Positions 6,637 through 27,672 of a stretch of 64,000 nucleotides of DNA are shown here, in pieces. The DNA comes from Anaerolineae bacterium. GTDB taxonomy: Bacteria > Chloroflexota > Anaerolineae > J102. Below the pieces are notes generated by a model, which was not told the DNA's origin, made no database searches, and worked only from the letters and a program-made list of their open reading frames with translations. The position numbers and the translations under genes are program-made. The stretch spans positions 1,917 through 65,916 of the forward strand of contig JALXCB010000112.1 of the NCBI GenBank assembly GCA_026991225.1, written 5' to 3'. Every line of letters begins with the position of its first letter. The stretch's first letter is position 1.

Positions 6637-6901
6637 TTAGTAAACAGTGTTCAGTATTCAGTGTTCAGTTGTAGCAGCATGGGGGCTGGTTTCCTTCGCC
6701 GACCGGAAAAATGGGACGGCGGAGGCCGTCCACTGGCCGCAGGCCTGAAGAGCCCGACTTCAGTCGGCGAGTATCCCGGCGCACTCTGCGGTGAAATGCT
6801 TTCTCCCTTCCCTTTGCGTCTTTGTGAGCTGGCGTGAGGCAAAATTTTTCAGTAGACCATTCGTGTTGCGTTACCCGCATGATCGGGTGAGGAGGTGAAA
6901 G

Positions 6902-8811: not shown

Positions 8812-8879
8812 GAAAATTCTAACCACAGAGACACAGAGAGCGCGGAGGAAGAAAATGGTGAGATTTGGAGAAGATTTTC

Positions 8880-9033
8880 GTAACTACTAAGGTCGCGTCA
8901 CCACTTTTTGCCACGAAGACACGAAGAGAATGAAGGCACGAAGCCTTTTCCCTTATCTTTTTCTTCGTGTCTTCGCAAAACTTCGAGCCTTCGTGGCTTC
9001 TTGCGGCCTAAAGTCGAGGACGTTAGCAGTTAC
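8880..9033. mobile_element. MITE, type 2 (GTAAC-terminus family), with 8-bp TSD AGATTTTC
   Basis: Termini are GTAACTACTAAGG ... CGTTAGCAGTTAC (inverted). AGATTTTC occurs at 8872-8879 and again at 9034-9041. The internal sequence matches copies at 31606, 31786, 24878 and 55553. Confidence 0.85.
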
Positions 9034-9128
9034 AGATTTTCTCTGTGAATCACCCCTATCCTTCTCTGTGTCCTCCGTTTCTCCGTGGTGAAAAAATCTT
9101 TCATCATCTCCGAGGACATGCACTCAAC

Positions 9129-10055
9129 ATGAAAATCCTTGTCACCGGCGGGGCCGGGTTCATTGGCTCCCACATCGTCGACCGCTACATCGAACTGGGC
9201 CATGACGTCATCGTCGTGGACAACCTGGCCACGGGCAGCAAGGCCAATGTGAATCCCAACGCCCGCTTCTTCCCCCTGGACGTGCGCTCTCCCGAATTCG
9301 CCGCTCTCATCCGCAGCGAAAAGCCCGACGTCATCAACCATCACGCCGCCCAAACCCTGGTGCGCATCTCCACCGAACAGCCCGTCTTCGACGCCGACGT
9401 CAATGTGCTGGGCATCATCAACCTGCTGCAGGCCGCGGCCGAGGCGGACGTGCGCAAGGTCATCTTCGCCTCTTCGGGTGGCACCGTGTACGGCGTTCAG
9501 GACAAACTCCCCATCACCGAGGACACCCCCTTCGCGCCGCAAAGCCCCTACGGCATCAGCAAAACCGCCAGCGAGTTCTATCTGCGCTACTATGCGGCCA
9601 ACTGGGGCGTGGCCTATACCGCCTTGCGCTACGCCAACATCTTCGGCCCGCGCGACACCGTCTCCAGCGAACACGTCATCACCGTCTTCGCCACCCAGAT
9701 GATCCGGGGCGAAACCCCCACCATCCACTGGGATGGCGAACAGGCCAAGGATTATCTTTACGTCGGAGATGTGGTCAATGCCAATGTGCAGGCGTTGACA
9801 AAGGGGGACAACGAAGCCTACAATCTGGGAGCCGGTCAACCTATCTCGGTCAACACCATCTTCAAGCTGATTCGAGACATCCTGGATGTGGATGTGGAAC
9901 CTCGATTCGGCCCCAAACGTATGGGGGACGTGCGCCTGTTCTATCTGGATAGCCGCAAAGCGCAAAGGGAACTGGACTGGCGTCCGCAGGCGCCCTTCCT
10001 CGACGCCCTGACCGAAACCGTGCACTGGTACCGCGACCACCTGTTCCGAAAATAG
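9129..10055 (+). CDS. NAD-dependent sugar epimerase/dehydratase (UDP-glucose 4-epimerase family)
   Basis: ATG 9129 gives MKILVTGGAGFIGSH (Rossmann fold). Catalytic YGISK present. The track's 9045 start lies in repeat DNA. The last codons (LFRK-TAG) lie in a shared repeat junction. Confidence 0.88.
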   Translation: MKILVTGGAGFIGSHIVDRYIELGHDVIVVDNLATGSKANVNPNARFFPLDVRSPEFAALIRSEKPDVINHHAAQTLVRISTEQPVFDADVNVLGIINLLQAAAEADVRKVIFASSGGTVYGVQDKLPITEDTPFAPQSPYGISKTASEFYLRYYAANWGVAYTALRYANIFGPRDTVSSEHVITVFATQMIRGETPTIHWDGEQAKDYLYVGDVVNANVQALTKGDNEAYNLGAGQPISVNTIFKLIRDILDVDVEPRFGPKRMGDVRLFYLDSRKAQRELDWRPQAPFLDALTETVHWYRDHLFRK

Positions 10056-10277: not shown

Positions 10278-12182
10278 GTGCCCAACACCACCCCCTGTCC
10301 CCACCTGGGACTCGCCTACGACCGCAGCCTCCTTCGCACCGAGCCCGACGGGGACCATCGCTGCTACGCCCAACTCCCGCCCGCGCCCATCGACCTGGCG
10401 CATCAGGAAGCCTATTGCCTCACGGCGGAGCATGTCAATTGTCCTTTTTACATTCATCCCGTAGGAACCGAGGGGCCAGAGGAGGAGGAAGATGTCCGCG
10501 CCTGGCAAAAGGCGTATCTGGGCATTATCGGGGTCATTCTCGTGGTCCTGGCCGTGGTGTATGGCCGTACGCTGTTGTTCCCACCCGCCGTCGCCCCGAC
10601 CTCGACGCCGACGGCGATGGCGTTGCCCACAGAAAGGACTTCTTCTCCCACGGTCGTCCCCACGCTGCCGCCGACGCCGCTTCCGGTGACGCCGCCCGCC
10701 GAGGTCAGCACACCTACGCCCGAGCCGGGCGGCCGCAGCTTCACCCTGCGACCCGACGCCGGGGATGTGACCTGGTGGGATAGCCAGGAAGCCGCCCGGG
10801 CCCATGTGGGCGATTCCTTTCTCTATGCAGGATATTTTCAGGGCCGGGTATTCCTCTCCGCCATCCGCTTCGACCTCTCGCGCATCCCTCGCGGCGCGCC
10901 CATCCGCGGGGCCACCCTTTCCCTGACCGGGCTGCAAATCGACCGCTTTGATCCCCGGGCCGGCGGGCAATGGACCGTGCAGATATTGCAACCCGACGCC
11001 ATCGATGGCTGGCCCCGCCTCGATTTCCAGACGGCGCTCAACGTGCCCGCGGCCATCACCCTGGTGCCCTCGCTGACCGCGGACCAGTTGGGCAAGGGCG
11101 TGGAAAATCGCTGGGAGTTAGACGCCAGCGCCCTGGTCTGGATCGAGCAGGCATTGGTTGATGGCAAGGACGCCCTGGTGTTTCGCATCGTGGGGCCCAC
11201 AGGCGGGAAGAGCACGCTGTTTGGGTGGGATAGCGGCGTCGGGCCGGAGAGCCTGGGCGAGCCGCCGCGCTTGTGGCTGAATGTGGGACCGCCGCCGGCC
11301 ACGCCGCCGCCATTGCCCACCCAAGAGCTTATCGTCGCCACCCTCACGCCCACACCCGCCAACGTGCTGACCGTGGCCGCCAACAGTCTCACGGCCACGG
11401 CGGTCGCCCGCACCATCGGGACGTATACGCCGGTTCCTCCCAACATCGCTACGCCCACGCCTACGCCCGCCAATCTGGCCACCATCCAGGCGCTGGCGTT
11501 CCAGCTTGGGTTACCGCCTGTCGCTCCGCCCACCCCCTTCCCTCACAACGACGCCACGGCCACAGCGCAGGCCAACTATGCAACGGCCGTGGCCATCGCC
11601 ACCGGCACTTTTACGCCCACGCCCGAGGACGCGGTCACGCCCTTCTTCCCCACGCCCACGCCCACCGCTGGCAACCTGGCCACGGCCGTCGCCTACGTAT
11701 TGCAGGCCACGGCCCAGGCTCAAACCGCGACGCCCACGCCCTACCCCTATAACGCGCTCGTCCCCACGCCCACCTTCACGCCCTGGTTCATCACCGCCAC
11801 CCCTACGCCAATCAACGCGGCCACGGCCACAGCAGAAAGCTTTTACGCCACGGCTGTGGCGCTGACCACGGGCACGCCCACGCCTCTCCCTCCCAACGCA
11901 ATCATCCTCCCCTACGGCGTCAAGGAGACGCCCGCGCCGCATCCTTTCGTCAGCGGAGAGCAGGTGCAAATCGCGGGCGAAGAGGCTGTGGAGGTCCGTC
12001 GCGCACCCTCTCTCGATGCTTCCATTGTCACGAAATTGACGCCCGGCGCGAAAGTCACGATCGTGGGCGGGCCATATTTCGCAGGACAGTCGATATGGTG
12101 GCTTGTTCGATTCGAGTCAGCATCTGCTATAATGTATGAAGGATGGATTCGAAACCAGCAATTGGCTCCCATCGGTGAATGA
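10278..12182 (+). CDS. membrane-anchored protein: N-terminal Cys/His-rich cytoplasmic motif, one TM, Thr/Pro-rich region, C-terminal SH3b-like domain
   Basis: 634 aa with GTG start. N-terminus CPHLG...HRC...CLTAEHVNCPFY, TM GIIGVILVVLAVVYG, long TPTP-type low-complexity stretches, and C-terminal GEQVQIAG...WWLVRFE...GWI (SH3-like). Confidence 0.7.
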   Translation: MPNTTPCPHLGLAYDRSLLRTEPDGDHRCYAQLPPAPIDLAHQEAYCLTAEHVNCPFYIHPVGTEGPEEEEDVRAWQKAYLGIIGVILVVLAVVYGRTLLFPPAVAPTSTPTAMALPTERTSSPTVVPTLPPTPLPVTPPAEVSTPTPEPGGRSFTLRPDAGDVTWWDSQEAARAHVGDSFLYAGYFQGRVFLSAIRFDLSRIPRGAPIRGATLSLTGLQIDRFDPRAGGQWTVQILQPDAIDGWPRLDFQTALNVPAAITLVPSLTADQLGKGVENRWELDASALVWIEQALVDGKDALVFRIVGPTGGKSTLFGWDSGVGPESLGEPPRLWLNVGPPPATPPPLPTQELIVATLTPTPANVLTVAANSLTATAVARTIGTYTPVPPNIATPTPTPANLATIQALAFQLGLPPVAPPTPFPHNDATATAQANYATAVAIATGTFTPTPEDAVTPFFPTPTPTAGNLATAVAYVLQATAQAQTATPTPYPYNALVPTPTFTPWFITATPTPINAATATAESFYATAVALTTGTPTPLPPNAIILPYGVKETPAPHPFVSGEQVQIAGEEAVEVRRAPSLDASIVTKLTPGAKVTIVGGPYFAGQSIWWLVRFESASAIMYEGWIRNQQLAPIGE

Positions 12183-13919: not shown

Positions 13920-14181
13920 AAGCGCAGGATGACATCCGGGAAGGCGTGCTGACGCATTCAGGCCACAATCGCATATCGACCGCCAACATTGTTCTCATCG
14001 TTCCCTCACGCAAAAGCGCCAGTTGTTGTGAAGACTTTTTGCAATTGCTTGGCTTCACTCCGGGAGACATTCAGGTTGTTCACCGCGGAGCACGCAGAGG
14101 ACGCAGAGTCAACTGAACACTGACGACTGATCACTGATTTCCCCAGCGCCCTTTGCGGTGAGTTGTTGCAAAGCCATCGTC

Positions 14182-15345
14182 ATGTCTGTTCCGAATGCTC
14201 TATTCTACGCTTTGCTCCGGGCCCGATGGGACGAAAGCGCGTGGTCCGAGGCCGCGCAAATCATCCAGGAGGGCTCCATCGATTGGCCCGCGTTCCTTCA
14301 TCTCGCCAAAGCGCGCGGGCTCGCCCCTCTCATCTATAGCGTGACGCGAGATCATGCTCTCCTGCCGCCGCAGGTGGACCGGGCGTTGCAAGCGCACTAT
14401 GTGCACAACGCGGCTCGCTCCACCCTGCTTTTCGACACACTCCACGCCATCCTGGATGCGTTCGAGCGCGAGGGCGTTCAGGTCATCCTGCTCAAAGGCG
14501 CGGCCCTGGCCGAAAGCGTCTACGCCAACCCCGCGTTGCGCCCGATGATGGACCTGGATCTCCTGATCCGGCGCGACAGTCTGGACGCGGCGACGCGGGC
14601 ATTGACAGACCTGGGCTTTGCACCCGACCGGCGCGAACCTCGCCGCGGCGCCATACAGGCATTCGAGAGCCAGATGCGCTTTCATCGCCCCGATCTGACC
14701 GACTCCCTGGTCGAGCTTCATTGGAGCCTGCTGGATTCACCCTACTACCAGGAGCGCCTGAATGAGGCGTGGTTCTGGCAAAGCGCCCGTCCAGTGAGGG
14801 ACAGCCACGCGCACACGCTCGGCCCCGAAGCGCAGATCATCCACCTCAGCGCCCACATGCTGCTCCATCATGGGCGAGCCATCTGGCTGGGGATGCACGA
14901 CATCGCGGAGGTGTGTTATCACGAGAAGGACACCCTGGATTGGGCGCTGCTCCTGGCAAAAGCCAGGGCCATGCACCTCGTATTGCCCCTACAGCACATC
15001 CTGCCACAAGTGAAGCGAGGCTGGCGGGCTTCCATCCCAGACGCAGTCCTCCAGGATCTCCAGCGGCTTCCGGCCTCGGATGACGAACGGCGGGCGTTTC
15101 ACTGGCTCACGCGACAACGGACGTCCGAAGCGCATCATTTCCTGGCGGACCTCCTCACCACGCCCTCCGCCCGCCAGCGATGGCGCTTCGCCCTGGCCAA
15201 CATCTTCCCCTCGCCCGTTTACGTCCGGGAGCGCTACGGCATGAAAACGCCCTGGTTGACGCCCTATGCCTATCTTCGGCGATGGCTGCGCGGCATGGCC
15301 CATCTCCGGCATCTGTTGCGCCCGCCCCAGCCTTTCCGCGAGTGA
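14182..15345 (+). CDS. uncharacterised nucleotidyltransferase (NTP_transf_5-like), copy 1
   Basis: MSVPNALFYALLRARWDE...; motifs LKGAALAESVYANPALRPMMDLDLLIRR and ELHWSL. Paralog of 23386-24561. A GTG at 14158 is an alternative start. Confidence 0.75.
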   Translation: MSVPNALFYALLRARWDESAWSEAAQIIQEGSIDWPAFLHLAKARGLAPLIYSVTRDHALLPPQVDRALQAHYVHNAARSTLLFDTLHAILDAFEREGVQVILLKGAALAESVYANPALRPMMDLDLLIRRDSLDAATRALTDLGFAPDRREPRRGAIQAFESQMRFHRPDLTDSLVELHWSLLDSPYYQERLNEAWFWQSARPVRDSHAHTLGPEAQIIHLSAHMLLHHGRAIWLGMHDIAEVCYHEKDTLDWALLLAKARAMHLVLPLQHILPQVKRGWRASIPDAVLQDLQRLPASDDERRAFHWLTRQRTSEAHHFLADLLTTPSARQRWRFALANIFPSPVYVRERYGMKTPWLTPYAYLRRWLRGMAHLRHLLRPPQPFRE

Positions 15346-15351
15346 GCTTTT

Positions 15352-15782
15352 GTAACTGCTAACGTAGCCCTGTTCACTCGACACGGATAGGAGGAAACGC
15401 GGATAAAATCTTTTGGGTGCGTCCTAAATGAGTTGGCGTTAGCCGGACGTACTGGCCGAGTGAACGGGGCCCTTTAGAGCCTGTTATGAACTTATCGCCA
15501 ATTTGGCGTTGATTTTGTAGATGACGCGCGTTTCAATTCGCCACGGATGAAGCTGATGCGGCGATCTTGGCCTTTGAAGGCGGCAAAATGCATAACAGCC
15601 TCTAGGCGCAAGCCCCCTCCTTTGCTTCCTCCCCCGCTTCGAGACGGGCGGGGGGAGGAAATCAAGTCGCAAGTGGCAAGTCCTTCTGGGAAGACGTTTT
15701 TTCACCCGCCACTTTTTCCTTCGCGCCTTCGTTCTCTTCGTGTCTTCGTGGCAAAAAGTAGCAGCGAGACCTGCGTAGTTAT
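15352..15782. mobile_element. composite/nested repeat: type-1 MITE halves flanking other repeat modules
   Basis: Left end GTAACTGCTAACGTAGCCCTGTTCACTCGACACGGATA matches the 25078 and 62332 copies. The right end CTTCGTGTCTTCGTGGCAAAAAG...GCGTAGTTAT is degenerate. The interior matches the inverted 28440-28540. No clean TSD. Confidence 0.55.
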
Positions 15783-15790
15783 TTTTCAAC

Positions 15791-16258
15791 ATGCTATCCC
15801 CCGCCGCTCTGCACTCCACCGTCTACGCCGCGGTCCTGCGCGACGCCCTCGCCCGAAATCGCGGTTTCTCATGGACGCTGCAGGGCGAAAGCATGTGCCC
15901 GACCCTGCCGCCGGGCTGCGTCGTGACCATCCAGCCGCTGCAGACACCCAGATTGGGCGATATCGTCGTATTTTCCCAGGGGGACAGACTCCTGGCCCAT
16001 CGTCTGGTGCGCCGCCGCGGGGATGGCTGGATCTGCCAGGGCGACGCCCGGCGCACGCCCGACGGTCTTATCACCCGAGAGCACATCATCGGGCGGGTCG
16101 TCGAAGCCCGATGGGGGGAGCGTGTGATCTGGGCCGCACCGGAGTCGGCGCCCACTCGCTATCGTTGGATACTCCGCTATCACCTTTTGCGAGCGTTTCG
16201 ACTTTTTCGAAGACTTCATCGCGAGATCATCGTCCCATGGAAACGGCCTTCGTTCTGA
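15791..16258 (+). CDS. soluble S24/S26-family peptidase (signal-peptidase-like, Ser/His type)
   Basis: 155 aa. Ser motif QGESMCPTLPPG. AHRLV sits where bacterial SPase I has K-R, resembling the SipW/Sec11-type His. GDIVVF and QGD are present. No TM helix seen. Confidence 0.75.
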   Translation: MLSPAALHSTVYAAVLRDALARNRGFSWTLQGESMCPTLPPGCVVTIQPLQTPRLGDIVVFSQGDRLLAHRLVRRRGDGWICQGDARRTPDGLITREHIIGRVVEARWGERVIWAAPESAPTRYRWILRYHLLRAFRLFRRLHREIIVPWKRPSF

Positions 16259-17127
16259 GCTTCGCCGGGCTTTCCTTTCGCATCGACGCCCCAGAACCCG
16301 AGTGGTCCCAACGCTTGCAAGAACGATATCAGGCCTTTCTTGCGGACGAGGCCGCCGCGGATTGGCGCATCGCCCTGCGCCACGCCCCCGATCTTCCCCA
16401 GGCCGCCGCGGATTGGGCCCGGCATGAAGCCACGCGCACCGAGTTTCACATCGCCTCCTACCGGGGGCGGGTGGATTTCGCCACGCGTCGGGCCCAGGTC
16501 CTCACGCCCGACCTGCAACGAGCGCCGTCGGCCCTGGCCCGCACCATCACCTTCATCGCCACGGTGATCTTGCCTCGGGAAAAGGACGGCTTGCTGCTTC
16601 ACGCTTGCGGGCTGGCTAGCGACGCCGCGGCCTTCGCCTTCTGCGGACCTTCGGGCGCGGGCAAGAGCACCATCGCCCAACTGGTCCCGCCTACCCTCCA
16701 GGTCATGAGCGATGAAAACGTGATTGTGCGTTTGAGCGAAGCCGGGCCGATCCTTTACAACACGCCTTTCTGGGGCCAGAATACGCCCGAGACGCGCATC
16801 CATCGTCAACGCATCCATCGCCCCCTGAAAGCGGCGTTCATCCTCAAACAAAGCCCTCGCTGGTCGTTGCGCCCCCTTGCGCCATCCCAGGCGATTCTGG
16901 CATTGCTCGCCACCGAAAAAGTGGCCGTGGAACGCACGCCCAGCGCCCAGGCCTGGCTCGACATCGCCTCCCGGCTCCTGGCCCAAACGCCCATCTTCGA
17001 ACTGGGCTTCCTGCCCGCGCCCGAACTCTGGTCATTTCTCGCCGAACAGGGTTTTCCTATCCCCCTGTCTTCTCCTGAATCTCGCCATGTCCCTCCCCGA
17101 CCATCTCACTCCCCGACGCCATCCTGA
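16237..17127 (+). CDS. HPr-kinase-related P-loop protein (HprK C-terminal-domain-like)
   Basis: ATG 16237 (METAFVLSF...) overlaps the peptidase gene by 22 nt. LLLHACGLASDAAAFAFCGPSGAGKSTIAQL resembles the HprK P-loop. The longer track ORF (15547) runs through repeat DNA. Confidence 0.75.
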   Translation: METAFVLSFAGLSFRIDAPEPEWSQRLQERYQAFLADEAAADWRIALRHAPDLPQAAADWARHEATRTEFHIASYRGRVDFATRRAQVLTPDLQRAPSALARTITFIATVILPREKDGLLLHACGLASDAAAFAFCGPSGAGKSTIAQLVPPTLQVMSDENVIVRLSEAGPILYNTPFWGQNTPETRIHRQRIHRPLKAAFILKQSPRWSLRPLAPSQAILALLATEKVAVERTPSAQAWLDIASRLLAQTPIFELGFLPAPELWSFLAEQGFPIPLSSPESRHVPPRPSHSPTPS

Positions 17128-17368: not shown

Positions 17369-17370
17369 CC

Positions 17371-18423
17371 GTGGACCCCTATCAATCCCTGCTCGATCGC
17401 CTCAAACGACAGCACACGCCCTACGCGGTGACGTGGGAACTGACCCATCGCTGCAACCTGGCCTGCTTCATGTGCTACAACGTCCCCCGCGCCCAGCCGG
17501 AACTCTCTACGGAGGAGGCTCTGGACGTGCTGGAGCAACTGGCCCGGGCCGGGGTGCTGCGCCTCACCTTCACCGGCGGCGAAGTCCTGGCGCGGCGAGA
17601 TTTCCTCACCATTGCCCGCCGCGCCCGTGAACTGGATTTCGCCATCGACATAAAAACAAACGCCACCTTGATCACGCCCGAGCTGGCGGATGAATTGGCC
17701 GCGTTGCATCCGGTGGAGGTGGAAGTCAGCCTTTTGGGCGCCACGCCCGAGACGGTGCAGGGCGTCATGGGCGGCCACCGCACATTGAACCGCATCCTGG
17801 GTGGGGTGCGCCTTTTGCTGAACCGCGGCGTGCGCGTCACCCTGAATTCGCTGATGATGCGCATCAATCTGCACGAACGCGAAGCCATGATGGCCCTGGC
17901 CCGCGAACTGGGCGTCCCCCATCGCATGGTTTTCAAAATCTCGCCCGACGATGACGGCAACGATAAATCCAGGGGCCAACAGCTTCCCTTCGAGGACATG
18001 GTGACGCTGTATGGGGAAATGTGCGAGCCCTTCCAGCCGCGGCCCGGCCATCCCCGCGCCCGCACCTGCTCCGTGGGCCTCCACGCCTGCCTCATCGATC
18101 CCTACGGAGTCGTCTTCCCCTGCATCGAACTGCGCATTCCCGCCGGTAGCCTGCGCCAGCAGCCCTTCGAGACTATCTGGCGGGAAGCCCCCATCTTCCG
18201 CGAACTGCGTGAGCGGCACACGCTGGCCCACATGCCCGCGTGCCGCACCTGTCCCTTGCAGACGTATTGCGAGGGGCGTTGCTCGGGCGCAGCCTGGAAA
18301 GAACGGGGCGATCTGTACGCCCCCCACACCCTGGCCTGCCGCCAGGCCCAGGCCCGATATCACAGCCTGCATCCTGCCGAACCCATCCCATCTCCCGCCT
18401 TCTTCCTGGAACCTGCGCCATGA
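17371..18423 (+). CDS. radical SAM enzyme with C-terminal SPASM domain
   Basis: GTG start 2 nt after the PqqD stop. CNLACFMC (CxxxCxxC). C-terminal Cys clusters CSVGLHACLIDPYGVVFPC and CRTCPLQTYCEGRCSG. Confidence 0.9.
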   Translation: MDPYQSLLDRLKRQHTPYAVTWELTHRCNLACFMCYNVPRAQPELSTEEALDVLEQLARAGVLRLTFTGGEVLARRDFLTIARRARELDFAIDIKTNATLITPELADELAALHPVEVEVSLLGATPETVQGVMGGHRTLNRILGGVRLLLNRGVRVTLNSLMMRINLHEREAMMALARELGVPHRMVFKISPDDDGNDKSRGQQLPFEDMVTLYGEMCEPFQPRPGHPRARTCSVGLHACLIDPYGVVFPCIELRIPAGSLRQQPFETIWREAPIFRELRERHTLAHMPACRTCPLQTYCEGRCSGAAWKERGDLYAPHTLACRQAQARYHSLHPAEPIPSPAFFLEPAP

Positions 18424-18605
18424 AAGACGAGAAAAAGACACGCGATGCAGCGCGGCCGTCACGCAAGCCCTGGATCGAGCCCGCCGTCACTTTCGAGCGC
18501 CCCCTGGAGGTGCACGCGGATGGCCCGCCGGACAAGCGATCGCAACAATCCTTCAGCTTCCTCGGGCCTTTATACGCCTCGCAAAACAGCGGCGTCTGCC
18601 ACTGA
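18420..18605 (+). CDS. 61-aa candidate precursor peptide (hypothetical)
   Basis: ATG overlaps the rSAM stop (ATGA). My count gives GC3 of ~77%, versus ~66% for the overlapping 18445 frame. The ORF ends 8 nt before the signal-peptide start of the next gene. Sequence: MKDEKKTRDAARPSRKPWIEPAVTFERPLEVHADGPPDKRSQQSFSFLGPLYASQNSGVCH. Confidence 0.5.
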   Translation: MKDEKKTRDAARPSRKPWIEPAVTFERPLEVHADGPPDKRSQQSFSFLGPLYASQNSGVCH

Positions 18606-18612
18606 CAGGCGG

Positions 18613-21255
18613 ATGATGAACCAACGTCGATGGGGAACCAGCGCCGGAGCAGCGGCTCTCCTCCTGGCGTGGTGGGTCTGGACCCTGACAGCCTTTCCTG
18701 CGTCCGCCACCGCGGCGACGCCCCAGGCGTTTCGCATCGTCACCCGGCAGGCAGGGCTCTATCACATCACCTACGAGGATTTGCAGCAGGCTGGCGCCGA
18801 CCTGGCCGGGCTCACCCCGGACGCCATCGCCATGACCTACCTGGGACAGCCGGTCGATATCCTCATCATCGGGGGAGAGGATGGGCGTTTCGATCCTGGG
18901 GATGCCGTGCTCTTTTACGCGGCGCCCTATCGCGGACGCTACATGACGGGAAATGTGACCTGGCTTATCCTGGGAGGGGGCCCGGGCGGGCGCATGGCGA
19001 CGCGAGCCCGGCAGCCCGATGGCTCCGAGACCCGGGTGAACGTCATCACCCGCACGTTGCGCCTGGAATACGACCGGGATTATCGCAGCAACTATCATCG
19101 GCCGCGGGATGAAGATCACTGGTTCGATATGCCCCTGAGCGTGGTTGCCTCCTCGCCCGTGGTCACCCGCACCTACCCCTTCACCCTGACGCATCTCGCC
19201 GCGTCAGGCCTGGTAACCATCCGGGCGTTGCTCCACGGCGGACGGAATCAGCCTGCCTCGCCCGATCAATCCCTGGCCCTCACCCTCAACGACCACGCCC
19301 TGGGCCTCTTCCAATGGGATGGCAGCGAGGATTACCTCACTACGGTCGTGACTGAGACCAACGTCTTGCGGGAAGGCGCCAACGCCCTGGACCTGGTGGC
19401 GGGGTTGGACCAGTTCCCCGCGGATGCGGGCGTCGGCAGCTATTGGATTTCGCCCGACTGGGTGGAGATCGACTATCCCGCCCGGGCGTGGGCGCAGAAC
19501 GGGCGTTTATTGGCGCAGGGAATCCCCTCAGGCCCGATGGAAATCGTAGCCGAGGGTTTCCCGTCCTCCGACGTCTGGGCCTTCGACATCACCGATCCCC
19601 GCCACCCTGTGCGCGTGCTCAGCGTTCGGGCGCAAGAGGGCCGCGTTCATCTGTGGGATGACGCGCCCGTCCACGCCCGCTACATCGTCAGCGCTCTCGA
19701 CGCCTTTCTCAGCCCCGTCGCCATCGAGAAGGACCGTCCCTCTCACCTGCGGGAGCCCCGCGGTCATGTGGATTACATCGCCATCGTCCACCGCTCCCTA
19801 TGGGACGCCATCGATCCTTTGCTGGCCCACCGTCGGGCCGAAGGCATGATCGTGGCCAAAGTGGACGTCCAGGATATCTACGACGAATTCAGCTTCGGCC
19901 GGGTGGATCCCGAAGCCATCCGCGATTTTCTGGCTTGCGCGTACGAACACTGGCGCGGCGAGCAAGGGCCGCCCCGCTTCGTCCTCCTGGTGGGAGATGG
20001 CCATTACGATTTTCGCGGGAACTCGGGAACTTCCCTGCCCAACCTCATCCCCCCTTACCTCATCGACGTCGATCCCTGGATCGGCGAGACCGCCGCGGAC
20101 AATCGCTATGTGAGCGTGGACGGGCCCGACAACCTGCCCGACATGAGCATTGGCCGCATCCCCGCCCGCACCCCCGCGGAAGTCGCCGCGGTGGTGGACA
20201 AAATCCTGACCTACGAAGCGGCCCCCGCGGGCGATTGGCAGAAGCGCATCCTGTTCGCGGCGGACCGTGCCACCGATTTCGACGCGGATTTCCCGCGCAT
20301 CAGCGACGCCATTCGCCAGCACTGGCTGCCCCAGGCGTACGATGACCGCCAGCTCTACTATCTGGTGGATGAGCCCGACGCCGCGGCCATGCGCGCCGCG
20401 TTCAAGCGGGCGTTCGACGATCCGCCGTTGATCTTGCAATGGTTCGGCCACGCGTCCCGCTTTCGCTGGGGCTCGGTGAGCATGTTCAACATCTTCGATC
20501 CGCCCGCGCTGACCGAGAACTCGGTCTGGCCCGTGACCTTCACCTACGCCTGTTGGAGCGGCTACTTCATCAATCTCTATCGCGACTGGCAGAGCCTGGG
20601 CGAGACCCTGGTGCTTACCCCCGGCCGCGGCTCGGTGGCCGATCTCTCACCCGCGGGCCTGCATGTGGGCGACAGCCTCACCGCGTTGAATCAGGGCGTC
20701 ATCAAAGCCATCTATCAGGATAAGATCGAACGTCTGGGCCCGGCCATCGATGCGGGCAAACGCCATTTCGCGGCCCACAGCGACGCCTGGCACGACATCA
20801 TCGACACCTCCATCCTCTTCGGCGATCCCGCCTTGCGGCTGCGACGCCCCGAGCATTGGGATTTGGACCGCTCCAACCTGGCGATGAACCCCACGTCCCC
20901 CATCGCCGGGCAGACCCTGACCGCCACCCTGACTGTGCGCAGCGACGCAGCAACGCCCTTGGCGGGCGTCCAGGCCGTCGTCACCTTCGATCCCGCGCTC
21001 CTGAGCGTGGAGGATGCGCCGGGCGCGGAGGTGGAGCCCGGCCGTCTGACCTGGACCCTGACCCTATCGCCAGGCGAAAGCCGACCGCTGCCCTTCTCCT
21101 TGCGCGTCGCCCCTGGATTGGCGGGCGAGGCGAGCGTCCAGGTGCGGGCCGTGATACGTTCCCCGGGCCAGGATGACGTCATCCTGCACCAGACTCTGCA
21201 TCTCCGCGCCGCGGCCTGGCGCGTGTTTTTGCCCTTCACTTTGCAGACGCCATGA
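18613..21255 (+). CDS. secreted peptidase C25 (gingipain/PorU-like) family protein
   Basis: ATG 18613 gives MMNQRRWGTSAGAAALLLAWWVWTLTAFPASA (signal peptide). YIAIVH...RFVLLVGDGHYD, FGHASRF (His) and YACWSGYF (Cys) resemble the C25 catalytic region. Confidence 0.75.
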   Translation: MMNQRRWGTSAGAAALLLAWWVWTLTAFPASATAATPQAFRIVTRQAGLYHITYEDLQQAGADLAGLTPDAIAMTYLGQPVDILIIGGEDGRFDPGDAVLFYAAPYRGRYMTGNVTWLILGGGPGGRMATRARQPDGSETRVNVITRTLRLEYDRDYRSNYHRPRDEDHWFDMPLSVVASSPVVTRTYPFTLTHLAASGLVTIRALLHGGRNQPASPDQSLALTLNDHALGLFQWDGSEDYLTTVVTETNVLREGANALDLVAGLDQFPADAGVGSYWISPDWVEIDYPARAWAQNGRLLAQGIPSGPMEIVAEGFPSSDVWAFDITDPRHPVRVLSVRAQEGRVHLWDDAPVHARYIVSALDAFLSPVAIEKDRPSHLREPRGHVDYIAIVHRSLWDAIDPLLAHRRAEGMIVAKVDVQDIYDEFSFGRVDPEAIRDFLACAYEHWRGEQGPPRFVLLVGDGHYDFRGNSGTSLPNLIPPYLIDVDPWIGETAADNRYVSVDGPDNLPDMSIGRIPARTPAEVAAVVDKILTYEAAPAGDWQKRILFAADRATDFDADFPRISDAIRQHWLPQAYDDRQLYYLVDEPDAAAMRAAFKRAFDDPPLILQWFGHASRFRWGSVSMFNIFDPPALTENSVWPVTFTYACWSGYFINLYRDWQSLGETLVLTPGRGSVADLSPAGLHVGDSLTALNQGVIKAIYQDKIERLGPAIDAGKRHFAAHSDAWHDIIDTSILFGDPALRLRRPEHWDLDRSNLAMNPTSPIAGQTLTATLTVRSDAATPLAGVQAVVTFDPALLSVEDAPGAEVEPGRLTWTLTLSPGESRPLPFSLRVAPGLAGEASVQVRAVIRSPGQDDVILHQTLHLRAAAWRVFLPFTLQTP

Positions 21256-21304
21256 GCCATGCAGAAAGGGTACTTACCGCAGAGAGCGCAGAGGACGCAG
21301 AGTC

Positions 21305-21349
21305 AACTGAACACTGATTACTGATCACTGATAACTGATTACTGATAAC
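21305..21349 (+). repeat. tandem heptad repeat NACTGAT x ~6.5
   Basis: aactgaa cactgat tactgat cactgat aactgat tactgat aac, with exact 7-nt period. Shorter versions occur at 239-262, 3417-3430, 10226-10270, 14111-14139 and (inverted) 6631-6672. Confidence 0.85.
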
Positions 21350-21394
21350 TTTCTCCGCGCCTTCGTGGCTCTATTTACAAAGCTGAATTACACC

Positions 21395-23377
21395 ATGTCT
21401 TCTCACCGCTTTCTCCTGTTTTTACTCATCGCAATCACGGGCCTGATGGTGGTGGCGGGAATCCTGCCCTCATCTGTGCACGCAGCCGATTGCGCCACCG
21501 CCCAAAATGGCGACTGGAACGACCCAAACACCTGGACTGGCTGCAGCGGCGGGACGCCCGGGGCGGGGGATAACGTCAGCATCAGCCATACAGTGACGCT
21601 CACACAAAACGAAAGCGCCGCGAACGTCACCATCAACGCCAGCGGCACGCTGAACCTGGCGGGATACACCCTGGACGTCAAGGGCAATTGGGATAACAGC
21701 CATGGCGGAACCTTCAATCATGAAAATGGCACAGTCCAATTCAGCGCCTCCAGCGGCTCGCAGAGCCTGAGCGGGGACACGACCTTTTGTGACGTCATCA
21801 TGGATCTATCCTCCTATGTGACCTTCGATTGGGGAAGCAACACAACCACTGTCATCGCCGGGAATCTCACTAAACCCAGCGGCGGCACTTTGAACGCTGG
21901 AACCAATACGACGGTTCGCTTCACCGGCGCCTGCAAACCCAATAACACGGCCGCTATCGATGGCGGCGGGGCCAAACGTTTCGTCCATCTCGAAATCGCC
22001 TCGGGGGCGACGGTTCAACATTCAGGAGGCGGTTTATACGTATTTGGCGACTTCACCAATGACGGCGTTTTCTCTCAATCCAGCAGTTCAGGAATCACTT
22101 TCGATGACGACGCCTCCCTTACAAGCCATACGTTATCGGGCAGTGGTTCCACAACTCTTGAAAGCTTGTATGTGGGCGGGGGGGGCAATACACTGACAGC
22201 GCAAGCGGATGTAACCATCCAGGGAGACAATTTCAATGTGGCCAGCGACAGCACATTCGATGGGGGGAGCCATACGGTTACCTTTGATGGCGACACCTCC
22301 CTGGGAGGAGCAGGCGCTTACAATTTTCACAATGTTGTCATCAATTCTGGAAAGACGTTGAATGGCAAAACGGCCGGGGATGGCGTCATCAACGTCTCAG
22401 GAGACTGGACGAACAACGGGACGTTCACGCACAATAACAGCCAGGTCACCTTCGATGGAACGAGCGTACAAACCATTGGCGGCTCCGCGACCACGACATT
22501 TTATGACCTGGTCGTGAACGCCGGGGCGATTGTGGACGCGCCAGCCGCCAATCAGCCTCTGGCTGACAATGATGTCGCCAATAACGGCGAAATGCGCCAG
22601 ACGCGTAGCGTCGGCGGCGCCACATCGTTCCTGCATCTCACCAGCAGCAGCGCCGCCGACAGGTATTTTGGCATGGATTTGGACGGCAGCGTGGGGAGCA
22701 CGGAGGCGGCCATTCGCGGCAATCAGGATTCCTGTCCCAATGTGCCCGCAGGCAGTTATCCCGTGAAACGCTGTTACGCCATCACCCCCGGCAGCGCTGG
22801 CGCGGTCACGGCCAAATTCTACTACGAATATGGCGAATTGCGCTCGGGCCAGGACCCGGCCACCCTGTTCGTGTGGAAGGACAATGGCGACGGCACGTGG
22901 ACCAAGATCACGCCCGACAGCCGCAGCGCCTGCAATACGGACGATATCGGCTGTTCGGTGACGGTGAACAGCCTGTCGCTGGGAACGGGCGTCAACCGCT
23001 TCGTGCTGGCCCACACCAATCCCCAGGCCGTGAGCATGGCCCGGTTCGAGGGGCAATGGTTGCCCACAGGCGGTGCGCTGCTCTCCTGGGAGACGGTCAG
23101 CGAGTTCGATTTGCTGGGCTTCAATCTCTACCGACGGACGTCGGCTGCCCAGCCCTGGAAGAAGCTCAATGATGCGCTCATCCTCAGCCCCTCGCCCGGC
23201 TCCTCCCAGGGGCGCACTTACGCCTGGCGGGATATCGATCCCTCGGAGGGGGCGAGGATCGCCTATCGGTTGGAGTGGGTGGACATGAACGGCGTCGCCT
23301 CGCCCGTGGGAGAAGCGCAGGTCGTCAATCTGTCCGACGAGCTTCCCTATCGAGGCTGGCTTCCCATGCTGCGCTGA
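21395..23377 (+). CDS. secreted repeat protein (beta-helix-like G-x-T/N repeats) with C-terminal Ig/Fn3-like domain
   Basis: ATG 21395 gives MSSHRFLLFLLIAITGLMVVAGILPSSVHA. A ~100-aa unit recurs: (V/I)xGxWxNxGTFxHxNxxVxFxG...Q(S/T)(L/I)xG..TF.D(V/L). The tail reads LSWETVSEFDLLGFNLYRR...WLPMLR. Confidence 0.7.
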   Translation: MSSHRFLLFLLIAITGLMVVAGILPSSVHAADCATAQNGDWNDPNTWTGCSGGTPGAGDNVSISHTVTLTQNESAANVTINASGTLNLAGYTLDVKGNWDNSHGGTFNHENGTVQFSASSGSQSLSGDTTFCDVIMDLSSYVTFDWGSNTTTVIAGNLTKPSGGTLNAGTNTTVRFTGACKPNNTAAIDGGGAKRFVHLEIASGATVQHSGGGLYVFGDFTNDGVFSQSSSSGITFDDDASLTSHTLSGSGSTTLESLYVGGGGNTLTAQADVTIQGDNFNVASDSTFDGGSHTVTFDGDTSLGGAGAYNFHNVVINSGKTLNGKTAGDGVINVSGDWTNNGTFTHNNSQVTFDGTSVQTIGGSATTTFYDLVVNAGAIVDAPAANQPLADNDVANNGEMRQTRSVGGATSFLHLTSSSAADRYFGMDLDGSVGSTEAAIRGNQDSCPNVPAGSYPVKRCYAITPGSAGAVTAKFYYEYGELRSGQDPATLFVWKDNGDGTWTKITPDSRSACNTDDIGCSVTVNSLSLGTGVNRFVLAHTNPQAVSMARFEGQWLPTGGALLSWETVSEFDLLGFNLYRRTSAAQPWKKLNDALILSPSPGSSQGRTYAWRDIDPSEGARIAYRLEWVDMNGVASPVGEAQVVNLSDELPYRGWLPMLR

Positions 23378-23385
23378 CCGAAATC

Positions 23386-24561
23386 ATGCTTGCCGCTCCG
23401 GCTGACGATCCCGTCACCCACTTCCTGATCCTCTGCCTGCGCGGGCGGTTCGATACAGGCGCGTTGGACGAGGCCCGGGATTGGGCGGTCGCTCAGGAAT
23501 TGGATTGGCGGGCCATCGACGATCTGGCCACACGAGCGTCGCTCGCTCCCATCCTCTACGCCCTGCTACGAAAACAGACATGGTTTCCGGCTGATATCCT
23601 CCAACGCTGGCATCGGGCCTATCTGACGACGGCCCTGATCAATACGCTCTCTCTGCTGGAACTGGCGCGAATCGGCGACGCGTTCGGTGAGGCGGGCATT
23701 CCCTTCATCACCCTCAAGGGAGCGGCCCTGCTGGGGCAAGTCTACAAAAATGTCGCTTTGCGCCCGATGGCCGATCTCGATCTCCTGGTTCATCGGGAGC
23801 ACATGGCGCAGGCTTCCGGCATCATCCAGGCCATGGGCTATGCTCCCAACCACGAGGAAGAGCATCCGGGCATGTTTCTGGCCTATGAGAACGAAATCGC
23901 CTTGCAGCGGCCCGGAACGCGCCATACGATGATCGTGGAGCTTCATTGGAGCCTGATCGATTCGCCCTACTATCAGGAACGTCTGCCCATGGCCTGGTTC
24001 TGGAAGACGGTCATCTCCGAACGGGTGGGCGAACTCACCACGCTCATACTGGGGCCCGAAGCAACGCTGCTGCATCTGACCGCCCATCTCATGCTGCATC
24101 ATCAGGGCAAGGGGCTGCGCTGGCTGCATGATATAGCCGAGGTGATATGCCATTTCGACGCCGCGATAGACTGGGATTTGTTGCTGAAGCAGGCGAGCGA
24201 TTTTCGTCTGACGCTGCCCGTGCAACAGGCATTGCCCGTCGTGGCGACGCGCTGGCGTGCGCCTGTCCCGACCGCGGCCTTGGAGGCGCTGGCCCGGCTG
24301 GAAGCCTCGCCCGAAGAGCAACGCATCTTTGCCCAAATGACTCGAGCCAACGCCTCGCCGGGGCGTCGGTTGCTGAGGGATCTTTCAGGCATGTCCGGGC
24401 GTCGCAGGCGGATGCGTTTTTTGTGGTTGAAGTTGTTTCCATCGCCCGCCTACATGCAAAGGCGGTACGGCGTCTCTCATCCCGGTTTGACGCTCTTTTA
24501 CTATCCTTATCGATGGCTGCAGGGACTCACCGACTTGTTCAGAGGAGGGAAGCATGAATGA
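23386..24561 (+). CDS. uncharacterised nucleotidyltransferase (NTP_transf_5-like), copy 2
   Basis: ATG 23386 (MLAAPADDPV...). Shares LKGAALLGQVYKNVALRPMADLDLLVHR, ELHWSLIDSPYYQERL and the FPSPAYMQRRYG tail with copy 1. Confidence 0.75.
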   Translation: MLAAPADDPVTHFLILCLRGRFDTGALDEARDWAVAQELDWRAIDDLATRASLAPILYALLRKQTWFPADILQRWHRAYLTTALINTLSLLELARIGDAFGEAGIPFITLKGAALLGQVYKNVALRPMADLDLLVHREHMAQASGIIQAMGYAPNHEEEHPGMFLAYENEIALQRPGTRHTMIVELHWSLIDSPYYQERLPMAWFWKTVISERVGELTTLILGPEATLLHLTAHLMLHHQGKGLRWLHDIAEVICHFDAAIDWDLLLKQASDFRLTLPVQQALPVVATRWRAPVPTAALEALARLEASPEEQRIFAQMTRANASPGRRLLRDLSGMSGRRRRMRFLWLKLFPSPAYMQRRYGVSHPGLTLFYYPYRWLQGLTDLFRGGKHE

Positions 24562-24856
24562 GGTAAACGCATCGCAAAAAATCGTGTTGACGAAAGACAC
24601 GTTGTTTCAGCCACTTGAGGAGGATGCCGTCCTGCTCAATCTCGAAAGGGAACAATACTTTGGCCTCGATGAAGTGGGCACGCGCATGTTGCAGGTGATG
24701 CTGGAATCCCCCAATCTGGGCGCGGCCTACGAGGCGCTGCTGGCGGAATATGAGGTGACTCCCGGACGGTTGGAAGCGGATATGGCCCGTTTCCTCGATG
24801 AACTGCTGGAAAATGGGCTGGTGAGGGTGTTGCCCGATGGCGACGTTGCAGGATGA
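24554..24856 (+). CDS. PqqD-family protein, copy 2
   Basis: 100 aa, overlapping the upstream gene by 8 nt. LEEDAVLLNLEREQYFGLDEVGTRMLQVM..LGAAYEALLAEYEV is PqqD-like. Confidence 0.75.
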   Translation: MNEVNASQKIVLTKDTLFQPLEEDAVLLNLEREQYFGLDEVGTRMLQVMLESPNLGAAYEALLAEYEVTPGRLEADMARFLDELLENGLVRVLPDGDVAG

Positions 24857-24877
24857 TAGGGCTTTTCCTCTTCGAGT

Positions 24878-25707: not shown

Positions 25708-27672
25708 ATGTCAACTCAATTCCATTCCAACCGGGTGTCGTTGGGGGCGCCGCGCGTCTTGTTCGCAATCCTCTTGCTTTTCATCGCAGGATTGTTTCTA
25801 GTCGCGAGCCTCTCGTTTGCCAGCGGATCGGGAGACGCCCCCAAATCCATTCTGGGGCCCGAAGCCATTGAAGCCAACGCCGAAGCATCTCTAGGCGTCT
25901 ACGTCGACAATTATCAGCCAGACGCCAGCCAGGCCCGGCAGAACATGATCGATGCAGGCGCGCTATGGACCCGGGTCGTGATTGACTGGGACCAGGTGGA
26001 GCCCACCCAGGGGGCTGCCTATGACTGGAGCTACTATGATACGGTGATCAACGATGTGATCCAGGACGGCTTCTCGCCTTCGCACATCATCATTTCCTTG
26101 CAAACCTATCCAAGTTGGTCCTGGGCGCCGAATGGTCACTCCTGTGGCCCCGTTCATCCCGATTACTTCGATGACTTTGCGAACTTCGCGGCTGCGGCAG
26201 TGGATCGCTATTTCAACGCCCACGGCATCATCTATTACGAACTGGGCAACGAACCCGACAATCAAGACCCCGTAAACTACGAATGGTTGGGCGGTTGTTG
26301 GGGCAATGGGCCGGACCAAACTGCGAATCCAGCTTATGCCGGCGGGGATGATTATGCAGATTTCATGGGAGCCGCATATAACCCCATGAAAAACGTTGAT
26401 CCCAGTATCGTGGTCACCATGGGGGGGTTGGCTTATGACAACTTCTGGAATAAAAACGGTCAGTTCCCGGAAGATGGCCCCATCGATCCCGACTTTCTTG
26501 ACAACTTCCTGGGCAACGGTGGCGGGAATTACGTGGATATCATTAACTTCCATTACTTCGATGACTGGTCGTTCCGATGGGGCACCATCATCGGCAAAGC
26601 GCAATGGTTGCAAAAGGAATTCGATGGTCCGCAGGGACCATGGCGGCCGGTGATGGTTACGGAATTCGGCGTCGCCAGCCAGGATCCCACATCGGGCCCG
26701 GGCAACGATCCCCACACGCCTAACCTGTCTCCCGATGCCCAAGTATCCCCGTTTGTGACGGCCAATGGCGATTACTGGTCCGATCTCTCTGCCATGCTGG
26801 CTGCGAATAGCCCGACAGCGTCGCCCCATACTGAGGAATACCAGGCGCGATATGTGATCAAGGGCTTTACTCGCGGCATGTCCTATCAAGACAACAACAC
26901 GGATTATCAAATCATCCCCATGCTCTGGTTCCAGGCGGTCGACCGTCCTGACAAAACCGGGGGATACTACTATGGCTTGATGGATAGCAACCTGACCCCC
27001 AAACCATCCTACAACGCCTACAACACCCTGGCCACCGAATTGACCGGTCGGGCTTTCTTCCAGAATCACAACTTTATCACAGGCGATACAGCCGCCGAGG
27101 GATATGATTTCTCCGGGGGCGGTGAGGAACGCTGGGTGGTCTGGCGGAATGAGGACGCCACTGTGAGCCACGACTTCGACGTCAATGGCAATGGCAACGC
27201 CCTCCGCGTGGTGGAAAAAGATGGCGCAGAAACCATTGTCGTCGATGGTTCTTCCGACGATTTGGATGGCGCAGAAAATGGCATCGTTCGGATCGGACTT
27301 GGCCCCAGTCCCCTTATCCTCCAACCCCTGGTCTGCAATGCGGTCAGCGCCATCACCGATCTGAAATCCACAATCCCCACCGACGTCACCGATGTCGAAC
27401 TTCAATGGACCTCGGTGGCCAATGCCGAGAATTACGATATCTGGCGAGATGACGCCGAACCCTACTTCATGCCCGACACCAGCACCGCGGGTGGGACCTA
27501 CTATTACGACACCACCGATAGCCCGCCCTACACCGATGACGGCGCGCTCAGCTATCCACCTCGCAATCAGCACTTCTACCTGGTCACCGGGCGCAATGTC
27601 TGTCTCCAGGCGGGTGATATCTCCAACCGCGTAGGCGCCTTCCAGTTCGATCTCGTACCAGGCACGCCTTGA
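25708..27672 (+). CDS. secreted clan GH-A glycoside hydrolase-like protein with C-terminal Fn3-like extension
   Basis: 654 aa, with GGAGGG 6 nt upstream. Signal/TM VLFAILLLFIAGLFLVASLSFA. YELGNEPDN and VTEFG motifs. Paralog of 274-1701. Confidence 0.8.
   Translation: MSTQFHSNRVSLGAPRVLFAILLLFIAGLFLVASLSFASGSGDAPKSILGPEAIEANAEASLGVYVDNYQPDASQARQNMIDAGALWTRVVIDWDQVEPTQGAAYDWSYYDTVINDVIQDGFSPSHIIISLQTYPSWSWAPNGHSCGPVHPDYFDDFANFAAAAVDRYFNAHGIIYYELGNEPDNQDPVNYEWLGGCWGNGPDQTANPAYAGGDDYADFMGAAYNPMKNVDPSIVVTMGGLAYDNFWNKNGQFPEDGPIDPDFLDNFLGNGGGNYVDIINFHYFDDWSFRWGTIIGKAQWLQKEFDGPQGPWRPVMVTEFGVASQDPTSGPGNDPHTPNLSPDAQVSPFVTANGDYWSDLSAMLAANSPTASPHTEEYQARYVIKGFTRGMSYQDNNTDYQIIPMLWFQAVDRPDKTGGYYYGLMDSNLTPKPSYNAYNTLATELTGRAFFQNHNFITGDTAAEGYDFSGGGEERWVVWRNEDATVSHDFDVNGNGNALRVVEKDGAETIVVDGSSDDLDGAENGIVRIGLGPSPLILQPLVCNAVSAITDLKSTIPTDVTDVELQWTSVANAENYDIWRDDAEPYFMPDTSTAGGTYYYDTTDSPPYTDDGALSYPPRNQHFYLVTGRNVCLQAGDISNRVGAFQFDLVPGTP

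Follow-up and report, generated by a model that had tools for sequence, protein, structure and literature searches.

A conserved small gene between radical SAM/SPASM and C25 peptidase genes of Anaerolineae encodes a probable precursor peptide

In an Anaerolineae bacterium (Chloroflexota; assembly GCA_026991225.1), positions 1,917 to 65,916 of contig JALXCB010000112.1 make up the 64,000-nucleotide stretch of DNA analysed here (the window). A 61-codon open reading frame (ORF) at 18420..18605 of the window lies between a gene for a radical S-adenosylmethionine (rSAM) enzyme with a SPASM domain and a gene for a secreted cysteine peptidase of family C25. A preliminary description, made from the sequence alone, had proposed that this ORF encodes a precursor peptide of the rSAM/SPASM enzyme. 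The comparative evidence presented here indicates that the ORF is a genuine, previously unnamed small gene of an uncurated family. The proposed precursor function is supported by the recurrence of the gene, by a conserved leader and C-terminal G-x-C, and by the signature of purifying selection.

The locus and its small reading frame

The genes at the locus and their coordinates are given in Table 1. The ATG of the peptide gene (18420-18422) overlaps the TGA stop of the upstream rSAM gene (18421-18423) in an ATGA junction (ccATGAaa), in agreement with the preliminary description. The frame holds 61 open codons and ends at a TGA (18603-18605); its translation, MKDEKKTRDAARPSRKPWIEPAVTFERPLEVHADGPPDKRSQQSFSFLGPLYASQNSGVCH, is exactly the peptide given earlier. 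The C25 start, ATGATG at 18613, follows as described before, although the spacer, caggcgg (18606-18612), is 7 nt long and not 8 nt. For the peptide frame, the G+C content at third codon positions (GC3) amounts to 75.8%, compared with 62.3% for the frame of an ATG at 18445, 50.8% for the third frame and 70-81% for neighbouring genes. The peptide frame is the highest of the three, so that an earlier estimate (~77% against ~66%) had the right direction but not the right values. Scans with Rfam and for promoters and terminators around the ORF found nothing relevant.

ORF length by itself is no argument in this DNA (61% G+C), which has 126 ORFs of at least 50 aa within 10000-28000. The length of the ORF is not beyond chance, and the case for a gene therefore rests on its conservation.

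Table 1. Features of the window around the peptide gene.
Feature	Position	Strand	Matches and remarks
Wzc-like tyrosine autokinase / chain-length determinant	12228-13919	+	
First NTP_transf_5 nucleotidyltransferase, optional tailoring candidate	14158..15345	+	Pfam PF14907 4.6e-49
Stretch of ~445 bp without convincing ORF	15346..15790		Rfam finds nothing
S24/S26-type serine peptidase-like protein, 155 aa, optional	15791..16258	+	Pfam Peptidase_S24 2.2e-08; GESMCPT motif
HprK-related / ScmC-like P-loop protein, 296 aa, optional	16237..17127	+	Weak NCBIfam HprK_rel_A, HprK_rel_B, ScmC; Walker A GPSGAGKST
Stand-alone PqqD-family peptide chaperone, 93 aa	17087..17368	+	Pfam PqqD 1.1e-17
Radical SAM/SPASM enzyme, 350 aa, GTG start	17371..18423	+	Pfam Radical_SAM 1.5e-25, SPASM 2.8e-09
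Precursor-type peptide gene, 61 aa	18420..18605	+	Sequence, homologues, family profile, dN/dS
Secreted C25-family cysteine peptidase, PorU-like, 880 aa	18613..21255	+	Pfam Peptidase_C25 5e-73; N-terminal signal peptide
Secreted repeat-rich surface protein, ~660 aa	21395..23377	+	No Pfam/NCBIfam match; signal peptide
Second NTP_transf_5 nucleotidyltransferase	23386..24561	+	Pfam PF14907 2.4e-52
Second PqqD, orphan	24554..24856	+	88.5% identical to B1-like PqqD of the L001 lasso set
654-aa ORF	25708..27672	+	No Pfam match
Abi_C (abortive infection C-terminal domain) protein	28989..29717	-	
Large S8 subtilase	32449..35010	-	

A conserved peptide family and its gene neighbourhood

Among 5.8 billion proteins searched, the closest homologue (P0002) is a 64-aa protein with 63% identity (E=1.6e-16) from an Anaerolineae metagenome-assembled genome (MAG), where the gene has the same setting: an ATGA overlap with an 89%-identical rSAM gene and a C25 gene 7 nt downstream. 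Codon-level comparison with the closest relative gave ratios of nonsynonymous to synonymous change (dN/dS) of 0.22 for the peptide, 0.16 for the rSAM enzyme and 0.24 for the C25 peptidase. These values show that the peptide frame is under purifying selection, and the lack of frame conservation that would have spoken against the preliminary description was not found. A two-sequence profile run on 1.84 billion representatives matched 23 further small proteins of 56-70 aa, together with an unrelated 488-aa repeat protein (P0135). With a 27-sequence profile, at least 202 protein clusters (90% identity) were retrieved, all of 56-94 aa; the named ones are all annotated as 'hypothetical protein' and come from Anaerolineae or Chloroflexi MAGs. 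When 27 family members were scanned with Pfam and NCBIfam, no relevant model came up, even at E<=10. A metagenome scan, which used a 10-sequence subset alignment, returned mostly short contigs.

The association also appears when the search starts from the enzyme, since every locus looked up for rSAM homologues of 56-69% identity carries a 57-73-aa ORF of the peptide family. In locus L012, the peptide gene (11074..11247) was left uncalled by the source annotation, which has an antisense 40-aa ORF instead; small genes of this family are therefore under-annotated. Reading the peptide as a frameshifted C-terminal tail of the longer rSAM proteins (390-410 aa against 350) was rejected, as those tails (..QQHPGEPIPETPLQARLR..QPIPLL) are unrelated to it.

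The family consensus consists of RKPWEEPAIVLERSLEVSAQGGPPG, a variable Gly/Pro linker and GFLGPLGTSGGSGTC(x). The N-terminal 12-20 residues are variable and the leader follows R-K-P-W-E-E-P-A-I-V-L-E-R-S-L-E-V-S-A-Q-G-G-P-P-G. The linker between leader and core is Gly/Pro-rich and varies in length. The core reads G-F-L-G-P-L-G-T-S-G-G-S-G-T-C and is followed by 0-10 unconserved residues. Across 108 sequences, W, P, E-R, L, P-L and C are invariant, and the features whose recurrence the preliminary description had proposed as a check are retained as W-x-E-P...ER-x-LE in the leader and G-x-C at the C-terminus. Exactly one Cys is found in 115 of 132 members and a Cys in the tail in 130 of 132; the last tail Cys lies exactly nine residues after GPL in 100 of 128. 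A particular Ser is likewise present in 100 of 101 cores. In the window peptide, the leader comprises approximately residues 1-37, including R15-K-P-W18-I-E-P21-A-V-T-F-E26-R27-P-L29-E-V, residues 38-45 form the variable linker, and the core is F47-L-G-P-L51-Y-A-S54-Q-N-S-G58-V-C60-H, which fits the GPL-x8-C spacing (GPL-YASQNSGV-C-H).

This family argues decisively on whether the ORF is real. ORFs this long are common in the GC-rich window, and the C25 frame is open from 18424, so that the region could on its face be a chance ORF or the 5' end of a C25 gene starting at 18445. The comparative data refute both ideas, to which we attach practically no probability: a chance ORF would not be expected to have 202 clusters of consistent length with a conserved motif, nor the dN/dS given above. 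In L001, L010, L017 and L024, a stop right after the peptide stop closes the C25 frame just upstream of the C25 ATG, and the equivalent of an 18445 start, which had been named earlier as evidence that would count against the peptide gene, is therefore impossible there. C25 homologues also begin with a signal peptide, and the GC3 of the 18445 frame is only 62%.

Homologues of the rSAM enzyme with 56-89% identity are encoded beside the peptide gene or close to it in 12 separate loci, a recurrence that the preliminary description had proposed as a check. The commonest order is PqqD-rSAM-peptide-C25 (window, L001, L010, L012, L017, L024, L025, L026, L030). In L013, the rSAM gene comes first and lies ~3.7 kb from the peptide gene, which is placed between the surface-protein and C25 genes; in L019 and L021 the order is peptide-surface protein-rSAM-C25. 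In locus L029 (1..1230 and 6816..9192), two peptide copies each stand beside a surface-protein gene, and the rSAM gene has been broken by frameshifts into pieces that adjoin a DDE transposase. Gaps between rSAM and peptide genes range from -26 to +163 nt in eight loci, and translational coupling through the ATGA overlap is specific to the lineage of the window.

PqqD genes were found in most loci that extend upstream (window, L001, L010, L012, L024-L028 and L030, with a weak match in L013), and wherever a locus extends far enough, a C25 gene adjoins the peptide gene or lies close to it. The ScmC-like, S24 and NTP_transf_5 genes occur in larger loci, which form part of polysaccharide clusters (Wzc, Wzy_C, glycosyltransferases and Bac_transf), and are absent from the minimal loci L025, L026 and L030. 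The constant companions of the peptide are therefore PqqD and C25, also in loci that have no rSAM gene.

Only two family members have no Cys tail, namely P0141 in L027 (..FLGPLSASL) and P0144 in L028 (..GPFGPLTT, found on 21 contigs). Both end just past the conserved Ser, and no alternative frame at either gene continues the tail. Their loci have the order ScmC-PqqD-peptide-C25, with an S24 gene ahead in L027, and no rSAM gene on the contig. When the count is limited to loci retrieved with the peptide, which avoids a bias from rSAM-based retrieval, seven loci have both Cys tail and rSAM (L001, L015, L017, L019, L024, L029, L030), two have neither and none is discordant (Fisher exact p ~0.03). 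This joint presence or absence of tail and enzyme provides the strongest indication so far that the rSAM enzyme acts on the tail, and it lends indirect support to the earlier suggestion that the lone Cys is reactive. The retention of PqqD and C25 in the rSAM-less loci shows that the relationship of leader, PqqD and C25 is independent of the rSAM enzyme.

These patterns also bear on whether the peptide is modified at all. As a cysteine protease gene is always adjacent and the C-terminal segment is highly conserved, the product could be a small protein that stays unmodified and, for instance, acts on the C25 peptidase as a cytoplasmic inhibitor or chaperone, much as the staphostatins do, and its place after the rSAM gene could be incidental. 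Such a protein would not, however, account for the accompanying PqqD and the leader motif of the type recognized by RiPP recognition elements (RREs; RiPP, a ribosomally synthesized peptide with post-translational modifications), for the co-variation of Cys tail and rSAM, or for a Gly/Pro-rich linker of varying length. Further, AlphaFold2 with the 108-sequence alignment gave a predicted template modelling score (pTM) of 0.17 and zero secondary structure. The model suggests that the peptide is not an autonomously folding small protein, and the absence of a predicted fold fits the expectation for a precursor peptide. We consider an unmodified protein very improbable.

Proposed maturation and its precedents

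Taken together, we consider it probable that 18420..18605 encodes a RiPP-type precursor for the PqqD and rSAM/SPASM proteins. The peptide is most likely a substrate that the neighbouring rSAM enzyme modifies at the single Cys. The features found are those by which RiPP precursors are recognized, that is, a short ORF beside a modifying enzyme and conserved with it, a PqqD-like RRE gene and a conserved leader motif. In the pathway that we infer, the stand-alone PqqD would bind the conserved leader R-K-x-W-x-x-P-x-I-x-L-E-R-x-L and present the core G-F-L-G-P-L-x-x-S-G-x-x-G-x-C to the RRE-less rSAM/SPASM enzyme. The enzyme would then modify the Cys tail, the likeliest outcome being one thioether within the peptide that joins the invariant Cys with a residue of GPL-x-x-S-G and would close a small C-terminal ring. 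In loci that have them, the HprK/ScmC-like kinase and NTP_transf_5 would modify the invariant Ser further, in the manner of lasso peptides that are phosphorylated and glycosylated. Finally, the secreted PorU-like C25 peptidase would remove the leader or use the product, which is the weakest of the five steps.

Several precedents underlie this pathway. Leader peptides are bound by discrete PqqD-like RREs, which recruit the modifying enzymes, and rSAM enzymes are found together with some discrete RREs of the lasso type (PMC7470986). A conserved Y-x-x-P-x-L occurs in actinobacterial lasso leaders, the ligands of a PqqD-like B1 protein (PMC6784204); the W-x-x-P-x-I of the present family has the same spacing. 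SPASM enzymes commonly link a Cys sulfur to a carbon of another residue, with one bridge in SkfA, and QhpD makes such links in a protein subunit (PMC5682303). PqqD binding and a single thioether are therefore proposed from the RRE logic, the spacing of the leader motif and these thioether precedents. For the later step, lasso precursors offer a parallel, in which a Ser is phosphorylated by HPr-kinase homologues and the phosphate then receives hexose from a nucleotidyltransferase (PMC8498205). By analogy, it is plausible that the Ser of this family is a kinase or nucleotidyltransferase target, as had also been suggested from the sequence. The kinase and nucleotidyltransferase genes are absent from minimal loci, and the invariant Ser lies within three residues of the C-terminus in the rSAM-less variants. 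Cys chemistry other than a thioether, such as formylglycine-type oxidation, may also apply.

The rSAM enzyme has a CX3CX2C cluster motif and, in the SPASM domain, CX2CX5CX3C. It has no N-terminal RRE, as AlbA and StsB profile matches begin at model positions 98-112, which fits dependence on the discrete PqqD. Its best solved relatives are PqqE (6c8v, 5.7e-14) and then SkfB (6efn, 7.6e-11). There are 207 homologues at E<=1e-30, and a genome scan with the rSAM enzyme alone gave a single true relative. NCBIfam scores were 137 for NirJ2, 133 for AhbD, 128.5 for MftC, 110.8 for StsB, 109.9 for ScmE and 105.3 for PqqE; no NCBIfam cutoff was reached and all equivalogs were far below theirs.

Several points weigh against a precursor matured in this way. 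These six models score alike and far below their cutoffs, so that homology assigns no chemistry to the enzyme. The co-variation of Cys tail and rSAM derives from two rSAM-less loci on contigs of 9-10 kb, and the genomes concerned could have an rSAM gene at another place. In sacti- and ranthipeptides, the Cys donor is not usually found at the extreme C-terminus, and antibiotic RiPPs usually have cores far less conserved than this one. The minimal loci showed no transporter. Also, the peptide has no signal peptide while the C25 peptidase is secreted; the latter is the obvious candidate for a leader peptidase, but this role would need an additional export step.

Comparison with described pathways shows how far the likeness extends. 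The module works like the PqqA/D/E, MftA/B/C, sacti-/ranthipeptide and SynChlorMet (SCM) systems, but it fails every curated rSAM-pathway threshold tested. With pyrroloquinoline quinone (PQQ) biosynthesis it shares a short precursor with an aromatic-x-x-P leader, a stand-alone PqqD, an RRE-less SPASM enzyme whose best solved relative is PqqE, and a strongly conserved core that suggests one conserved product. The PqqA leader carries W-x-K-P. However, the family lacks the E-x3-Y core and has a single Cys as its conserved reactive-looking residue, and genes for PqqB, PqqC and PqqF are not present. Pfam PqqA matches none of 27 members at E<=10, and the PqqE score is 105.3 against a cutoff of 381.

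The mycofactocin system (MftA, MftB, MftC) also has a C-terminal core, a PqqD-like chaperone, an rSAM/SPASM enzyme and a conserved product, and MftC is among the top NCBIfam matches. Unlike MftA, the family has no Val-Tyr terminus, and the mftD, mftE and mftF genes are not present; no NCBIfam peptide model matches and MftC scores 128.5 against a cutoff of 265. The preliminary description had likened the C-terminal position of the reactive residues to mycofactocin-type C-terminal chemistry. The 0-10 residues after the Cys are unconserved, and such chemistry on the terminal residue is unlikely for this reason.

Sacti- and ranthipeptide systems (AlbA/subtilosin, SkfB/SkfA, StsB, CteB/SCIFF, QhpD/QhpC) similarly combine an rSAM/SPASM enzyme and an RRE on a Cys-containing peptide. 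The StsB and AlbA models align across the whole catalytic and SPASM region of the rSAM enzyme, and SkfA provides the example of a single Cys thioether (PMC5682303), its maturase SkfB being the second-best solved relative. In contrast, the RRE is separate here, the one Cys is at the extreme C-terminus, the core is nearly invariant, and there is an obligate pairing with a C25 peptidase and not with an ABC transporter or C39 protease. Scores for the curated maturases are below cutoff (StsB 110.8 against 625, AlbA 50 against 850, ScmE 109.9 against 400).

The gene order of a ScmC-like protein, a PqqD-like protein and an rSAM/SPASM enzyme, and the Pfam ScmC matches of homologues, recall the SynChlorMet system (ScmC, ScmD, ScmE, ScmF). 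This module differs in having one rSAM enzyme rather than two and a dispensable ScmC, which is absent from L025, L026 and L030; ScmC, ScmD and ScmE score 27.7, 38.8 and 109.9 against cutoffs of 125, 100 and 400. To our knowledge, descriptions of the SCM system include neither a C25 peptidase nor this peptide family.

Lasso peptide systems such as those of paeninodin and pseudomycoidin share the PqqD-type leader reader and the aromatic-x-x-P-x-aliphatic leader motif, and in them an HPr-kinase homologue and a nucleotidyltransferase modify a Ser near the C-terminus (PMC8498205, PMC6784204). In addition, the related locus L001 has a lasso gene set next door. Here, however, the modifying enzyme is an rSAM protein; no lasso B2 or cyclase gene adjoins the peptide gene in any locus, and a tblastn search of the window with the L001 lasso B2, C and precursor gave no match, which excludes the system from the lasso peptides.

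The lasso set of L001 (9361..13106) comprises a B1-like PqqD, a Transglut_core3 B2, an Asn_synthase cyclase, a 50-aa precursor-like ORF with KPYSPPKLTLYG and a ScmC-like gene. The window has the orphan PqqD listed in Table 1, and the lasso B2, cyclase, precursor and kinase are all missing from it. Among the cassette members, the first PqqD shows weak matches to lasso PqqD and ScmD models; its start (17087) was set by alignment to the L001 homologue. HprK/ScmC-like homologues in related loci carry Pfam ScmC. The first NTP_transf_5 gene recurs in L012, L013, L017 and L024, and the second is conserved in L001 and L024. The S24/S26-like protein is a candidate leader peptidase, with homologues at the same position in L010, L012, L017, L024 and L027. 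As read from its sequence, it appears to have a His (..LLAHRLV..) where bacterial signal peptidases have the catalytic Lys, as is the case in ER-type and SipW-type signal peptidases. The stretch without a convincing ORF, between the first NTP_transf_5 and S24-like genes, probably serves as the cassette's promoter region. Upstream of the cassette, the window has genes of sugar-nucleotide and glycosyltransferase type, and downstream of it the Abi_C and S8 subtilase genes.

The C25 peptidase, surface proteins and implications

The C25 protein scores 246.9 bits with PF01364 against a cutoff of 23, which places it in the C25 family. Its sole match in the PDB is the sortase PorU (6za2, 9.8e-15), and the GH and C of the catalytic motifs are retained. 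It matches the NCBIfam model for PorU, the T9SS (type IX secretion system) sortase, at 8.9e-56. PorU is described as cleaving a C-terminal signal and attaching cargo to anionic lipopolysaccharide (A-LPS) (PMC8545088, PMC4560394). The protein shares the catalytic His and Cys and a signal peptide with PorU, its only solved relative, but the score of 189 is below the PorU cutoff of 420, and PorV, PorZ and cargo with the C-terminal sorting domain were not seen. We know of no T9SS in Chloroflexi, the phylum of the host.

Homologues of the surface protein adjoin the peptide gene in L001, L013, L018, L019, L024, L026 and L029. Those of L019, L026 and L029 end in a transmembrane helix and an Arg-rich tail, an arrangement like that of classical C-terminal sorting signals. 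The C-terminal motif W-x-x-[FW]-L-P is shared by the C25 protein (..AAAWRVFLPFTLQTP; window 21200..21255) and the surface protein (..PYRGWLPMLR; 23340..23377). The C-terminus of the 654-aa ORF, NRVGAFQFDLVPGTP, matches those of C25 paralogues in L025 and L026 (SNRVGRFVYDLAP, SNRVGEFDFALVPGE), and may be another shared C-terminal tag or domain.

These observations could also fit a different role, in which the peptide would be a dedicated partner of the PorU-like C25 protein. Once modified, it would act as a cofactor-like subunit, as acceptor or anchor, or as regulator when Chloroflexota sort surface proteins with sorting-type signals at the C-terminus, often in exopolysaccharide loci. Of all partners, only C25 and PqqD occur in every locus type, including the rSAM-less ones, and in L013 the peptide gene stays beside C25 with the rSAM gene ~3.7 kb away. 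The adjacency is equally explained if C25 is a leader peptidase, however, and no finding connects the two proteins chemically. The surface-protein family travels with the module, the larger loci lie in polysaccharide clusters, and the core is conserved as a cofactor or structural element would be; yet the peptide lacks a signal peptide, and nothing points to an exporter. The comparison with the sortase PorU, the only solved relative, with its catalytic His and Cys kept, also favours such a partnership, but we found no paper on sortase activity of any Chloroflexi C25 protein. We regard a dedicated C25 partner as unlikely. A fuller form of this idea, to which we give a rather low probability, is that an rSAM-cross-linked, optionally phospho-glycosylated peptide and a PorU-like C25 transpeptidase constitute an undescribed Chloroflexota system for the sorting or attachment of surface proteins, with the peptide as acceptor, anchor or cofactor.

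A precursor peptide of the PqqD and rSAM/SPASM proteins would add to the rSAM-dependent RiPPs a sizeable uncurated precursor family of at least 202 clusters (90% identity) with a clear consensus. No published description of an rSAM-PqqD-peptide-C25 module was found in a literature search of incomplete coverage, and an earlier description is possible. In practical terms, gene callers omit the peptide gene in some loci, such as L012. The family stands out by its near-invariant core, the GPL-x8-C spacing, the obligate association with a surface protein and a PorU-like C25 peptidase, and its Cys-less, rSAM-less variants, which provide a natural control. The near-invariant core, together with the ties to polysaccharide loci, a surface protein and a secreted PorU-like peptidase, makes a conserved physiological molecule (for instance a cofactor, a signal or a component of the envelope) a likelier product than a variable antibiotic. 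Finding PorU-type C25 enzymes with a role in Chloroflexi would be new, and the sorting or attachment system, if true, would be a functional analogue of the PorU/A-LPS or exosortase systems built around a RiPP.

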